DNA of 56,195 bases, from the NCBI GenBank assembly GCA_001303705.1, contig LJUI01000003.1, positions 1 to 56,195 of the forward strand, written 5' to 3'. A program made the translations under genes and the position numbers. The notes under the pieces were generated by a model, which saw only the letters and a program-made list of their open reading frames with translations, had not been told where the DNA came from and searched no databases. The stretch is from a candidate division TA06 bacterium SM23_40. Its GTDB lineage: Bacteria > LJUI01 > SM1-40. This document shows, one piece after another, positions 2,568-8,005 of the stretch (its first letter is position 1; the number at the start of each line of letters is the position of its first letter).

Positions 2568-2679
2568 CGTATACGCGAGAGGCTCGACGCAGCGAATACG
2601 GAGCCTCTCCTGATAATCCCACGGGGTCGGCGTTCCATACTCGCTGATCTGTGGGATTTCACGTATGTGGAGGGATCAG

Positions 2680-3195
2680 ATGCGGTCGGCCCCGGGCCTG
2701 CAAACGGTCAGGGTATCAACGAAGAGAGGGTGGACCAGACAGATGAGGGTGTGGAAGAAGGACGCGAGGGCAGTCTTAAGCGTGCTGACAGCGCTGCTGC
2801 TTCTTGCTCAGCCAGTCGTGGGGTTCGAATTCAGCGACCCTCGTGATGACAGCTGGACTGAGGTAGACAAGATAGCACACTTTGTCTTATTCGCCTCCGC
2901 CAGCGCCATCGGGTACGGCCTGGAGAGGACGATGACCCCCGAGACCCGCTACTCCGATGGGGAGATCGCCGCGCTTATCGCCGCAGAGACCCTGGCCTGT
3001 GCGCTTGCCATAGAGCTCGTGCAGGGAATGTTCGCTCGAGACGGGGACGGCTTTTCCTGGAAGGACATGACCGTCAACGTCGTGGCAATCGGGGCAGGAT
3101 TGGCCCTGGCAAAACCGTTGGCGAAGTACAATCCAGACTTCCTCGGAGGGGCGCCGTTCGAAAGAGAGCTGCGAGGACAGGATCACGATCCGTGA
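2680..3195 (+). CDS. YfiM/DUF2279-like membrane or secreted protein
   Basis: Motifs DDSWTEVDKIAHF and GDGFSWKDMTVN resemble the YfiM family. ATG 2680 follows GGAGG; ATG 2743 is an alternative start that gives a cleaner signal peptide. Confidence 0.65.
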   Translation: MRSAPGLQTVRVSTKRGWTRQMRVWKKDARAVLSVLTALLLLAQPVVGFEFSDPRDDSWTEVDKIAHFVLFASASAIGYGLERTMTPETRYSDGEIAALIAAETLACALAIELVQGMFARDGDGFSWKDMTVNVVAIGAGLALAKPLAKYNPDFLGGAPFERELRGQDHDP

Positions 3196-3273
3196 TCGCA
3201 ATAGAGCGGGGACGCCAGACAGCTGACCCATGATGGCCGTCGTCGAGCCTACGAGGGCCAATCTCGAGAATGA

Positions 3274-3320
3274 GCGACAGGGCAAGCTCTCACGAAACTG
3301 AGCTCGCCCTGTCGCCCTTT
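3274..3320 (+). terminator. Hairpin between convergent genes, probable intrinsic terminator
   Basis: GCGACAGGGC (3274-3283) pairs with GCCCTGTCGC (3306-3315), with an inner AGCTC/GAGCT stem and a short T tract. Confidence 0.5.
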
Positions 3321-3375
3321 CCCTCTACTCGTTCGGCAGGCCGCCACTATGGAAGGACGGCCTCCCGGCACATCT

Positions 3376-5280
3376 CTACGGCACTACAGTGAAGACGAAC
3401 CTCTGTCTATCAATCACCTTATCCGGCGGCCGGCCTATCGTGACCTCGTACACATAGTCGCCGAGCGGCGCCGCACCAGGGATCTGATGAGTCATGTGCC
3501 GCTCCACGGTTCCCTGCGGCCCCACTGTCACCCGCTCGGGACCAACAAGCGGATTGCCCGCGAAATAGACACCACCCGGCAACGAAACCTCGCTGATGCC
3601 GTAGAAGGTCTGGCTCTGGTCGAGGTTGCTGGCGAGAGTGGCCGTAAATCCGAGCGTCCCTCCCCGTGGAACCGTTGTCGCGTCCGGAACGAGATCGAGA
3701 GCGATTGTCGGCCACGTGATCACAACATCATCAACATACCAGCCCTCATCGATGACCCCCGAGTCGCTATCCATCCGGAATCGCACGCGCACCGCCACGC
3801 TCCCGAATGCCGACAGGTCATAGATGTGGGCGGCGAATCCATCACTGTACCCATTGACGGAGCCTATCTTCGTCCAGCTGGAATCCGGCCCGTCAGCTAC
3901 CTCGATATACCCGTAGTCGTACCCGCTTTCGAGGGCGTACCACTGCCAGACATGGAGCTCGCCCCCCGAGGGCACGGTGACGAGCGGACTCACGAGTGAG
4001 GCATCCATATTGTTGAGATACTGCCAGTTCATCTGGTTTCCGCAGTACCAGCTCGTGTTCGGCGTGTGGACACGGTGGTCAGTCTGATCCCAGTAGTCGA
4101 GCATCCCGCCATGCGTCCATCCGCCAACGCCGCCCTCCATGTTATCGAACAATCCCGCCGTGTTATCGACCGTCACCCAGAACGAATCGGCGACTGCGTA
4201 CTCCTCTCCGCTGATATCCAGGTCCAGCATCGCCGAGTGCGGCTGGGGCGTGCCAGCAGCTACCTGAAGCACATACGGATTCAACGACGGAACCGTCATG
4301 TAGGGTTCGATATCTCCGAAGTCCGCGCTGTCCGTGGGGATGCTGATGTAAGGATCACCCGTCGAAAGGATCGCCGCGACCGAGTGCGCGGCGGCGTTCC
4401 CGGTGTTCTTGAGCGACACGGTGAGACCCACAATTTCACCCGGCTCCGCTATTCCGTTCCCGTTTCCACCGGGCCCGTCGTCGACCGATCGGCCCACAAA
4501 CTCCAACCGCGGTATCGGATTGATCCACGCCATCCCGGTCTGAAGAACTTCTCGATTCCCATCCATAAGCGTTGGATCGCTCTGCACGAATACGACCACC
4601 GCACACCAGTGATCGTCCCAAGTGTGCGCGATCGTGAACGGCTGTGATAAGTTGAGGGTGTCACCCTGTGCGATCGTGATCGGCTCTCCCGTCGCATCCG
4701 GGATCATATCCCGCATTACCTGATTGTGTATCTTCTCACCGTTAGGAGCATTGAATGGTATCTCCGACTCAGTGATGACCCACCGGACACGAAGATCGCC
4801 ATGGGTGATCGGTTGAGTGGCAACGATCTGAGCGTAGACAGTGCCTGCCATGCTCAGACTGTCGTACTCTACTGTGACCTCGATCGACAGCGGGCTTTCC
4901 TCCTCCGCCCGCACAGTAACAAGCGAATCCCATTCAGCAGGAGCGCCATTGCCGTCAACGATGCCGTCAATCCACAGATACGGAACGTAGTTGAAGACGT
5001 AGTAGTTCTTCCGGGCGGTGTTCTCGGGAATGTTGGCCTGATAGAAAGGGTCGCCCGAGCTCGGCCACCAGACGTGATACCTGATCACGGTGAGTTGCTC
5101 GTGACGTGCCTCGGCGATTTCGTCCAGCGTACCGCTGGCGCCTGCACACCCTCCTCACCCGGTATTGGTGAACATCTCGGCCAACACCATCCGCTGTGTC
5201 GCGTCCGCCGGCGCCACGGAGGCCAACAGGCAGGCCGCAAGGACCGCCAGCACTGCACAGGCCGGTCCAATCTCTCTCAT
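3376..5280 (-). CDS. Omp28-related secreted thioredoxin-fold selenoprotein (UxxC), 634 aa, with CARDB-like, MAM/adhesin-like and C-terminal Ig-like domains
   Basis: ATG 5280 follows GGAGG and is in frame with ORF 3376..5088. Translation: MREIGPACAVLAVLAACLLASVAPADATQRMVLAEMFTNTG-TGA-GGCAG...VIRYHVWWPSSGDPFY. The TGA (5155-5157, codon 42) occupies the first Cys of the Omp28 ExFTxxxCxxC motif, and a SECIS-like hairpin follows. Confidence 0.85.
5124..5157 (-). promoter_or_regulatory. In-frame UGA plus candidate bacterial SECIS element
   Basis: mRNA reads UGA GGAGGGUGUGCAGGCG CCAGCG-GUA-CGCUGG: a 6-bp stem whose apical loop starts GU about 22 nt after the UGA. Confidence 0.7.
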
Positions 5281-5426
5281 CGGCTGTACCCTCCCATCTC
5301 TGTTCCTGTTCTCTTCAGTGCTCACCTACAGTAGAGCCACTTCTCACTCGATGTCGACTGGCGGGAGCACCGCCTCCAGATTGCTCTTCCTTCCACCGAC
5401 ATCGAGGCTCCTCCCGGAAGGCGCCC

Positions 5427-5456
5427 ATTCTATCACAAACGGGGGAGCAGAGTCAA
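5427..5456 (-). promoter_or_regulatory. sigma70-type promoter for the Omp28-like gene
   Basis: Minus strand TTGACT-18nt-TAGAAT with a TG extension. Confidence 0.6.
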
Positions 5457-5638: not shown

Positions 5639-6433
5639 CTAGCCCTGTCCCGTCCGATCGCGCACCGACAGCCCTTCCCAGATATTGAGGAGAAAAGCGA
5701 TGTTCCCGACGAGGTACCGTCTCCACAGATTACGTGGATCGCTGAAAAGCCGGAAAACCCATTCCAGCCCGAGATCGACGAGCAGCGCCGGACGACGCCA
5801 GCCTCCAGTACTCAGATAAGCAAAGACACCGCCGACACACCAGACCACAGGGGAATCCATCCGCGGGGAATTCGCTGCCACCCACTTCTCCTGGTATGGC
5901 ACCCCGAGACCTACGAGGACGATATCCGCACGGGAACGGGCGATCAGATCAGCGACGTTCTCTCCCTCTTCAGGGGAGAAGAATCCGTGGTGGGTTCCCT
6001 TCACCTCGAGCCCGGGGATTTCCTCAGTGAGTATTTGCGCAGCCGCTTCTGCAACGCCGGGCTCACTCCCGAGGAGGAAAAGACTTACCCTCTCTGCAGC
6101 AAAGCGACGACAGAAATCGACCAGAGACGCCGTAGCCGTTACTCTGGCCGGCAACGCAACTCCGGCCAACCTGGCCCCCCATACAACACCGACCCCGTCG
6201 GCATAGACGAGGTCGGCCTCTCGCAGAATTCGTCTGTATTCGCTATCGCGCCACGCTAGCCGCATACAGTGGGCATTCACGTACATAACCTGATGGTGGT
6301 TCCCATCTCTGACGTACCCCATAAGCCGCCGATAGAGATCCTCGGTCGCAATGGCATCCACCTCCACTCCGAGAAAGTCTACTCTTTTGTTCCTCGTCTC
6401 GCTGTCCTCCTCGAAGCCTTGGTGTATGAGCAT
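5639..6433 (-). CDS. WecB/TagA/CpsF family glycosyltransferase
   Basis: Motifs VNAHC, ADGVGVVW, GTHHGFF, VGLGVPYQEKW, GLEWVFRL...RRYL. Confidence 0.9.
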   Translation of the reverse strand: MLIHQGFEEDSETRNKRVDFLGVEVDAIATEDLYRRLMGYVRDGNHHQVMYVNAHCMRLAWRDSEYRRILREADLVYADGVGVVWGARLAGVALPARVTATASLVDFCRRFAAERVSLFLLGSEPGVAEAAAQILTEEIPGLEVKGTHHGFFSPEEGENVADLIARSRADIVLVGLGVPYQEKWVAANSPRMDSPVVWCVGGVFAYLSTGGWRRPALLVDLGLEWVFRLFSDPRNLWRRYLVGNIAFLLNIWEGLSVRDRTGQG

Positions 6434-6451
6434 GAGACGCCCGCATGCGCG

Positions 6452-7915
6452 TCAGTCTGTATCCTCTCCGTGTCTCGCGAAATCGAGCAGGTGGCCGATG
6501 ACGGCCTTCGTTCCGCGAGCCACATAAGACAGATCTTCCACGCTTCTGATGCTCGTCAGGTGCCGCCACACGAACCTGGGCGCGAAGAAGCTCTGATAGA
6601 TCCCACCGCACATCTTCATCACTTCATCGGGTTCCATATCAGGAGTTTTCAACACAGGCTCTGACATGTCGTAGCGACTGTATTCCATCGGGTCGAATCG
6701 AAACCAGCCGTTCTCGATGGCCTGCTGATGGAGGGGAGTTCCTGGATAAGGGACGACGACAGTCGACTGGAGCATCTCGGCATGACCGCGGCTCATCAGT
6801 CGTCTCGCCAGTGCCAACGTGCGCTCGGCATCCTGCCTCGTTTCCCAGGGATAGCCCACCATTATCGTCAGATGAATGTCGATCCCTGCCTCACTCAGGA
6901 ACTTGCTCTCTTCTTCGATCTGCTGCACAGTGACGTTCTTGTCGATCCGGTCGAGCGTGGCCTGATTCCCGGACTCCAGTCCCATCTTCAGTTTCCGGAA
7001 TCCCGCCCGTCCCATCAACTTCACGAGATCAGGCTTGAGGTAGCCGTAGCGCATGTTGGCAGAAAAAAGAATCTCTTTGTCGAGACCGCGCTCGATCATC
7101 CCCTCACAGAACTTCTTGAGCCACCCCCCTGCGGGAAACGTGCCGGTATCATCGAATACCTCACGCGCTCCGTACTCTCGGATGAGCATCTCGATCTCGT
7201 CGAGGAGACTCTCGGGCGTACGCGTGCGGAAGCGGGGATAGAGTGTCGTCCACGAACAGAACGAGCACCGTGCCCAGGGGCAGTCTCGACCTACCATAGT
7301 ATAGAGAAACGGCTCGCGCTTCTTCCATTTCTCTCCATAGAGATGCGATTTGGTCAGCCTTCTATCGATGAATGGCAGTTGATTCAGATCATAGGTGAGC
7401 TCGAAGCGACCTGTGTCCTTGATCTCGCCATCCCCTCGATACCAGAGACCCTTGGGGAGCTCCTCCCCGTCGCGAATGTGCTTCGCAACCGCCACCACGC
7501 AGAGGTCGAAGTCCCCACCGGTGATGATGTAGTCGACCTTGCACTGTTCCATTGATTCACGCGGCAGCGCCGTAACGTGGTCGCCCACCAGGACCACTCT
7601 GCACGTTGGCTGCCGCTCTTTGAGTTGGTCGATGATCTTCCAGTGCTGCTCTACGACGGGGGTCTTCGTCTCGAGGACGATCAAGCCGGGCTTCTCGGCG
7701 TCCACATATGAAAAGAATTGATCTATCGTCCATCCCTCGGCTATGCAATCGTTCCACAATACATCGAAGCCTTCCTGCTGCAGCAGGGTCGCCGCCATCG
7801 CAGGGACGAGAGGGTATATGAACGACGGCACATGAAACCACTGGAATTGCCGGTTCTGGCCGAGCGTGGCGATTCCCTTCCCTTTGAGCGGGGGGTACCC
7901 GATCAGGACTCTAAT
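6452..7915 (-). CDS. B12-binding domain radical SAM protein
   Basis: N-terminal cobalamin-binding-like domain (ETKTP...VGDHVTALP), cluster motif CPWARCSFC (CX4CX2C), MGLESG and VVPYPGT. The best SD-supported start is ATT 7915; GTG 7924 and ATG 7987 are alternatives. Confidence 0.85.
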   Translation of the reverse strand: MRVLIGYPPLKGKGIATLGQNRQFQWFHVPSFIYPLVPAMAATLLQQEGFDVLWNDCIAEGWTIDQFFSYVDAEKPGLIVLETKTPVVEQHWKIIDQLKERQPTCRVVLVGDHVTALPRESMEQCKVDYIITGGDFDLCVVAVAKHIRDGEELPKGLWYRGDGEIKDTGRFELTYDLNQLPFIDRRLTKSHLYGEKWKKREPFLYTMVGRDCPWARCSFCSWTTLYPRFRTRTPESLLDEIEMLIREYGAREVFDDTGTFPAGGWLKKFCEGMIERGLDKEILFSANMRYGYLKPDLVKLMGRAGFRKLKMGLESGNQATLDRIDKNVTVQQIEEESKFLSEAGIDIHLTIMVGYPWETRQDAERTLALARRLMSRGHAEMLQSTVVVPYPGTPLHQQAIENGWFRFDPMEYSRYDMSEPVLKTPDMEPDEVMKMCGGIYQSFFAPRFVWRHLTSIRSVEDLSYVARGTKAVIGHLLDFARHGEDTD

Positions 7916-8005
7916 CGCACTCACCCCCCTCTGAAGTCGAGGATTTGCCGGAGAGGGGTCCCGGCACCCTCTCTGTAACCGTCTCATTCATGCTCTGCCT
8001 TCCCC

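Follow-up and report, generated by a model that had tools for sequence, protein, structure and literature searches.

The window analysed here is a stretch of 56,195 nucleotides of contig LJUI01000003.1 from the candidate division TA06 bacterium SM23_40, and our subject is a minus-strand gene at 3376..5280 that is very probably a genuine selenoprotein gene mis-called as a shorter open reading frame (ORF). An ATG at 5280-5278 opens a frame of 634 codons that ends at a TAG at 3378-3376, and translation of this frame with TGA read as selenocysteine (Sec, U) contains a single non-standard step, at the TGA 5157-5155, which is codon 42 and lies in the context VLAEMFTNTG-U-GGC (peptide around U42: RMVLAEMFTNTG-U-GGCAGASGTLDE). 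The ORF list made with translation table 11 cuts the gene in two, a 56-residue piece and a 570-residue piece at 3376..5088 that starts at GTG 5088, and the public protein cluster for this window (P0002) is the 570-residue form, labelled 'hypothetical'. The public call has neither the signal peptide nor the active site, as a preliminary description of this DNA had foreseen for a protein made without readthrough. The same description had placed the ATG at 5280, a Shine-Dalgarno sequence and a signal peptide in frame upstream of the called ORF, with TGA 5155-5157 as the only interruption, and each of these elements is found where it was put. A scan of the whole window for further in-frame TGA codons with C/U motifs returned only noise besides this gene, and the second selenoprotein suggested by the numbering in the preliminary description was not found. 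The features of the gene and its 5' part, including a candidate bacterial selenocysteine insertion sequence (bSECIS) taken from the minimum free energy (MFE) fold, are as follows.

3376..5280, minus strand: whole predicted selenoprotein gene, 634 codons plus TAG, with TGA 5157-5155 read as Sec
5289..5295, minus strand: Shine-Dalgarno-like GGGAGGG (5295-5289), 9 nt from GGAGG to the ATG by direct reading
5200..5280, minus strand: predicted signal peptide, codons 1-27 (MREIGPACAVLAVLAACLLASVAPADA), from the sequence and a model helix at residues 6-20
5155..5157, minus strand: predicted Sec codon UGA, codon 42, at the first position of U-G-G-C, with the resolving Cys45 at 5148-5146
5113..5142, minus strand: bSECIS-like element in the MFE fold, with upper stem CCAGCG 5138-5133 / CGCUGG 5129-5124 and loop GUA 5132-5130
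5142-5139 and 5116-5113, minus strand: possible lower stem of the bSECIS-like element, GGCG / CGCC, by pairing

Homologues and paralogs also have hydrophobic N-termini, which end right before a conserved [QE]R-x-VL-x-E block. The leader of the window protein carries both ADA/T, a likely signal peptidase I site, and, at residues 14-17, LAAC, which resembles a lipobox; in most relatives the leader lacks Cys. From these motifs, cleavage by signal peptidase I at ADA/T and processing at the LAAC lipobox appear equally possible.

The codon-42 column and the selenocysteine machinery

The source genome is a 2.88-Mb draft of 189 contigs with 89.8% completeness. A profile search of this genome, of the kind that the preliminary description had proposed as a check, found selA (477.8 bits), with selB adjoining it (SelB wing domain, 85.8 bits), and selD (374.4 bits), which itself has one in-frame TGA; a tRNA-SeC(tca) lies on contig C58, directly upstream of selD. 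With selA, selB, selD and tRNA-Sec all in the genome, the organism is, to judge from its gene content, able to decode Sec. Open frames of at least 300 codons (n=1830) are closed by TGA in 986 cases, by TAG in 674 and by TAA in 170, and since TGA is the commonest stop of long frames the genetic code is not reassigned.

These results bear on a reading in which the UGA is read through with insertion of a residue that is not Sec, for example Trp or Cys by near-cognate or suppressor decoding, or after partial code reassignment. At a single codon, in silico data cannot tell Sec from other readthrough. However, TGA ends more than half of the long frames counted above, a tRNA-Sec with anticodon TCA is present together with selA, selB and selD, and the residue that homologues align to U42 is always Cys and never Trp or Gly. 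We therefore consider insertion of another residue extremely improbable and return to Sec as the product of codon 42.

The comparison with paralogs and relatives carries most of this assignment. A search of the source genome with residues 1-260 gave seven matches. In the column aligned with codon 42, TGA is present in the paralogs on C58 (FTNYA-U-TGC), C38 (FTNTG-U-ASC) and C19 (FTWTS-U-SSC), and Cys in the paralogs on C121 (FTNTS-C-GPC) and C5 (FGSVF-C-QAC); the match on C187 is a fragment with Cys. Among the full paralogs of this genome, the window gene included, four of six thus have TGA and two of six Cys. The C58 paralog also has a perfect tandem duplication of 33 bp at C58:3200-3265; its first copy has TAG at the end in place of TAC, which places an in-frame stop ahead of a tail resembling those of the type IX secretion system (T9SS); this TAG is either an assembly artefact or the mark of a truncated gene.

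Relatives in other genomes were collected by a pattern scan of GTDB species genomes, from which the best 80 of 135 loci were used. Five of these were set aside, two that start past the motif (L081, L095), one of odd sequence (L039) and two with spurious motif matches (L073, L076), and among the 75 classifiable loci 30 have TGA in the codon-42 column and the other 45 have a Cys codon. The relatives come from Zixibacteria, WOR-3, Ignavibacteria, Gemmatimonadota, Hydrothermota, Cloacimonadota, Eisenbacteria and Calditrichia. The residues that flank the TGA in the window gene fit the family consensus RMVLxExFTNT-[U/C]-xxC, and full-length Cys homologues in the protein database align with it from the signal peptide through the CxxC, while several other database entries begin just past the CxxC, as does the window's own call. 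The in-frame UGA is thus aligned with Cys in homologues, as expected of a Sec/Cys pair. The preliminary description had asked whether homologues have Cys or TGA at codon 42 and had held that the proposal would fall if close relatives never had TGA there; paralogs and relatives have one or the other at exactly this codon.

Copies of the family were also sought elsewhere. Five of 40 other genomes searched gave matches, 20 in all, of which seven have one TGA, counted at whatever position it lies; these 40 genomes are kin to the source genome at domain level only, with no close kin among them. In five further whole genomes 12 of 19 copies have one TGA, and the copies often stand in tandem arrays. 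Tandem arrays of four or five copies that mostly share the same in-frame TGA lie in other genomes, at loci of G041 (C1:794157-798549) and G035 (C14:77301-81716). The locus of odd sequence mentioned above reads FSNTSGGGGUPQGN at the active-site position (L039:1381-1830), with a TGA and no CxxC-like spacing, and may contain a frameshift or a variant motif.

The distribution of TGA also bears on the reading that codon 42 is a recent nonsense mutation. On this account translation would end at TGA 5157 after a useless leader of 41 residues, and the remaining 570 residues would be either silent or translated from GTG 5088, with no signal peptide and no active site. Gene callers give exactly such a split, and the TAG within the tandem duplication of the C58 paralog indicates that decay or assembly error does occur in the family. 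However, TGA occupies the same column in three other paralogs and in 30 of the 75 classified relatives, the family consensus is kept around it, the Sec machinery is intact and, as described below, hairpins go with TGA and not with Cys. A pseudogene is in our view very improbable.

The hairpin downstream of codon 42

The preliminary description had pointed to a hairpin, CCAGCG-GUA-CGCUGG, about 22 nt after the UGA. The stem begins 16 nt and the loop 22 nt past the UGA, and the bare hairpin has an energy of -7.9 kcal/mol. In the accessible part of a 2026 review, the constraints on a bSECIS are a loop of 3-9 nt with G among its first two nucleotides, an upper stem of 4-16 bp, a distance of 16-37 nt from UGA to loop and an MFE <= -7.5 kcal/mol (PMC13188914). 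With a 3-nt loop GUA (G first), a 6-bp stem and the spacing and energy just given, the hairpin conforms to all of the constraints stated there.

Hairpins of this kind are enriched in the Sec forms of the family. With the window gene excluded, 21 of 33 other Sec forms have a hairpin of 6 bp or more whose start lies 10-21 nt past the codon, versus 2 of 47 Cys forms. The comparisons of Sec with Cys forms are made among kin sequences with G+C uncontrolled, which leaves their p-values overstated. The median energy of the best hairpin is -7.8 in Sec forms (n=34) versus 0 in Cys forms (n=45), and the window's own register, with at least 5 of 6 pairs, is seen in 7 of 33 other Sec forms versus 2 of 47 Cys forms. 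Within this register the stem shows compensatory changes, from CCAGCG/CGCUGG in the window gene to CCAGUA/UACUGG in one relative (L070) and CCAACA/UGUUGG in the C58 paralog. A second class of hairpin, GCUGAUCUG-GUCU-UAGAUCAGU, occurs mainly in Zixibacteria.

Besides the overstated significance of these comparisons, several points weigh against the Sec assignment. The 66-nt region that contains the hairpin has a z-score of -1.09, with 28 of 200 shuffles folding as well; the fold by itself is thus unremarkable, and the Sec reading therefore leans on the comparison with relatives. The peptide motif encoded at the hairpin, A-D/S-x-x-L-D (also A-D-L-x-L-D), favours a partial palindrome, which explains the weaker hairpin in some Cys forms. 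Lastly, Sec insertion at codon 42 is a prediction from the sequence, and the base itself is taken from the assembly.

The last of these points opens the way to a sequencing or assembly error, in which the true codon would be TGC or TGT and the product an ordinary CxxC protein. The assembly is a draft in many contigs and incomplete, and Cys forms are the majority of the family (45 of 75). However, four paralogs on four contigs would need the identical error at the same base, and a SECIS-like hairpin with compensatory changes accompanies the TGA forms only. We regard such an error as having hardly any probability, and we are highly confident that UGA 42 encodes Sec.

Domains, fold and proposed chemistry

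Downstream of the leader the protein is built of four parts, delimited by Pfam matches, structural alignment with VIA-align and an AlphaFold2 model made from a 39-row alignment, which has a mean predicted local distance difference test (pLDDT) score of 84.8 and scores above 90 over residues 30-520.

4516..5199, minus strand: thioredoxin-like domain plus Omp28 beta-sandwich, residues 28-255 (Pfam, model, VIA-align)
4168..4506, minus strand: Ig-like beta-sandwich domain, residues 259-371 (all-beta model, pLDDT mostly 85-98)
3700..4158, minus strand: MAM-like jelly-roll domain, residues 375-527 (Pfam InhA-like_MAM, VIA-align)
3379..3699, minus strand: C-terminal beta domain, residues 528-634 (model, of low confidence, pLDDT 37-61)

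In the model residues 28-125 make up the thioredoxin-like unit, and a beta-sandwich extends from there to about residue 255. U42-G-G-C45 lies between a strand at residues 32-38 and a helix at residues 45-58, so that helix 1 of the thioredoxin fold has the redox dyad at its N-terminus, in the place of a thioredoxin-fold UxxC. Pfam Omp28 (PF11551) matches residues 91-235 with 47.1 bits, above its gathering score of 34.9; homologues in the public databases carry the name 'Omp28-related outer membrane protein', but the Pfam model covers the beta-sandwich and not the UxxC. DUF1223 (PF06764) narrowly misses its gathering score (30.4 versus 30.7 bits), with profile positions 2-202 of 202 aligned to residues 34-233, and the NCBIfam lipoprotein model lipoprot_Omp28 (NF033782) gives 40.3 bits against a cut-off of 150, which leaves the protein outside that family.

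Further along the chain, no Pfam family matched the Ig-like domain (residues 259-371). The MAM-like domain scores 29.5-31.6 bits with Pfam InhA-like_MAM (cut-off 26.9), and VIA-align relates it to the meprin MAM domain (Z 17.7) and to the adhesin domains of the gingipain Kgp (Z about 14). The C-terminal domain resembles, by eye, the C-termini of the C121 and C19 paralogs. A T9SS sorting tail (PF18962, PF13860/FlgD_ig-like) gave no match in the whole protein or in residues 261-634; a T9SS/FlgD-Ig tail is present in many homologues and in the C38 paralog. The probable role of the Ig-like, MAM-like and C-terminal beta domains is attachment to the cell surface or the binding of substrate.

A sequence search of the PDB gave weak matches only, the best relevant one being 2axo (E 0.034), and for this reason a fold search was needed. 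The best structural match to the model is HBP35 (5y1a), with Z 26.5 and a root-mean-square deviation of 2.3 Å over 222 residues; the matched part of the model is residues 27-255, and the identity is 13%. The next is 2axo (Agrobacterium Atu2684), with Z 20.1 over 208 residues, which we take to be the representative of DUF1223.

HBP35 of Porphyromonas gingivalis is, in the accessible part of the report on it, a surface protein that in recombinant form outpaces E. coli thioredoxin in the reduction of insulin, and this activity is lost on C48S/C51S substitution (PMC2907840). The dyad of HBP35, a CxxC (C48, C51), is about as far from the N-terminus as that of the window protein. By analogy, the window protein may have a dyad-dependent disulfide reductase or isomerase activity of the HBP35 kind. 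The parallel has its counterweights: HBP35 differs in having Cys instead of Sec and a T9SS C-terminal domain that is absent from the window protein, it is for HBP35 that the binding of hemin is reported, and the identity of 13% is low. The preliminary description had proposed an exported thiol-oxidoreductase fused to adhesin-like domains; the thioredoxin fold and the MAM- and gingipain-like sandwiches bear out this architecture, and the thiol-disulfide oxidoreductase role, which is suggested by fold and motif, is one that we grade below the Sec assignment.

We envision a scenario in which the hairpin that starts 16 nt downstream of the UGA would recruit SelB with Sec-tRNA(Sec), so that the UGA is translated through. 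Export through the Sec protein-export pathway and removal of the signal peptide would then leave a mature protein that starts about 14 residues before U-G-G-C, with this motif at the N-terminus of helix 1 in a thioredoxin-like domain that is joined to an Omp28-type beta-sandwich, as in the HBP35 fold. The selenol of U42 could attack a disulfide of the substrate, or some other group that is oxidised or electrophilic, and the resulting selenenylsulfide could be resolved by C45. The redox site would be placed at the surface or in the periplasm, with the C-terminal beta domains serving as anchoring or substrate-binding modules. The cleavage site, location, redox direction and substrate of the protein are in each case what we infer from leader, fold and motif.

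Family relationships and links to selenium genes

The nearest catalogued group is NCBIfam NF045500, 'Omp28-related selenoprotein', which the accessible part of the 2026 review lists as 'Hypothetical protein GOS_C' (PMC13188914); GOS_C was first described in 2008 (PMC2398784). As far as these sources describe it, the NF045500/GOS_C protein resembles the window protein in being of a secreted type with a thioredoxin-like fold, a UxxC with Sec first, numerous homologues with Cys, and a bSECIS just downstream. The window protein is longer (634 residues) and differs in its extra Ig-like, MAM-like and C-terminal domains. Its match to NF045500 spans residues 21-252 with E 6.8e-10 and reaches 38.9 bits against a cut-off of 200, which counts against membership in the curated family. 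All 11 other clade members that were compared, Sec and Cys forms, likewise score 23.4-70.4 bits against the same cut-off. Since the window protein is homologous to NF045500 and yet far under its cut-off, it belongs to a divergent branch of the superfamily and falls outside the curated equivalog. The preliminary description had suspected that Sec-containing relatives of Omp28 were already catalogued, and in NF045500/GOS_C they are, though the window gene falls below the cut-off of that model. Our literature searches turned up no paper on Omp28 or DUF1223 together with selenoproteins, and none that names this clade.

A maximum-likelihood tree of the N-terminal domain, computed with the U/C column masked, comprises 79 rows (33 Sec, 46 Cys); a Sec row and a Cys row of fewer than 150 residues each were left out. 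At least 15 changes between Sec and Cys are needed on this tree, seven of them forced by well-supported branches, versus 25.4 on average for shuffled labels. Sec and Cys have been swapped many times within one family. The window protein has no close relative in the set: its best match has 53% identity over the domain, and the paralogs of its own genome 35-47%.

Two paralogs in the source genome lie next to selenium genes. A Sec form at C58:183-2557 (L018) stands right after tRNA-Sec and selD, and a 357-residue Cys form at C5:4271-8292 (L025) lies 52 nt upstream of selA-selB. Outside this genome no linkage of the family to sel genes was found, either in the 1.5-kb flanks of the other loci or for the 19 copies in five whole genomes, none of which lies within 120 kb of selD or selA. 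One may suppose that the expanded Omp28-like family of the source genome (four Sec and two Cys paralogs) is tied to selenium handling, through capture or reduction of extracellular selenium that feeds the Sec pathway, a suggestion that we rate as quite unlikely; if it were true, the window gene would be a surface-anchored member of that system.

These neighbourhoods also bear on a broader alternative, in which Sec is inserted and the UxxC binds or relays a ligand (heme, a metal, or a selenium or sulfur species) in place of acting as a disulfide oxidoreductase. The two paralogs beside sel genes fit such a role, and the protein with the closest solved fold, HBP35, is a hemin binder that supports growth at low hemin according to the accessible part of the report on it (PMC2907840). 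However, the window gene itself has no sel neighbours, and the surveys just described place the family away from sel genes in other genomes. We judge a ligand-binding role to be unlikely, and we favour the thiol-disulfide oxidoreductase as the working description of the protein.

The gene is a divergent, fairly ordinary member of a selenoprotein group that has already been catalogued, and it opens no new kind of system. The curated NCBIfam model misses the clade, and in Zixibacteria, Gemmatimonadota, Ignavibacteria and allied uncultured groups the Sec forms will therefore go on being truncated. The value of the present analysis lies in a corrected annotation and in the picture of a multi-copy surface redox family, flexible between Sec and Cys, in candidate phyla of the FCB group. 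The result is further evidence that selenoproteins located outside the cytoplasm and exposed at the surface are common in these lineages of sediment and subsurface.

The remaining features of the locus flank the coding frame.

5427..5456, minus strand: promoter-like TTGACT-18-TAGAAT, TG-extended, about 147 nt upstream of the ATG, with 10 of 12 consensus matches
3266..3367, minus strand: two stable hairpins past the stop by folding, at 3367-3334 and, with an 18-bp stem, at 3317-3272

The promoter that the preliminary description had proposed corresponds to the first of these features. The sequence elements are present, and the call is weak because the region holds two sigma-70-like sites where 0.8 are expected in shuffles (about 2.5-fold). 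The 5' leader of about 147 nt contains an inverted repeat at 5343-5402 on the minus strand with arms of about 11 bp, CUCGAUGUCGG ... CAGUCGACAUCGAG, and folds no better than shuffles (z -1.40). Rfam gave nothing at gathering score across the window, and around the gene a chance-level match only (E 0.67).

Past the stop codon, the fold of 3380-3255 has an energy of -69.4 kcal/mol and a z-score of -6.59, and none of 200 shuffles is as stable. The pair of hairpins is likely to mark the transcript end of the gene. It lies between the gene and a convergent ORF at 2665-3195 and resembles a bidirectional terminator lacking a T-run, which is why a consensus terminator scan missed it. Upstream of the gene, at 5639-7987 on the same strand, are a 264-residue and a 511-residue ORF, which by eye resemble a WecB/TagA-type glycosyltransferase and a B12-binding radical SAM enzyme.

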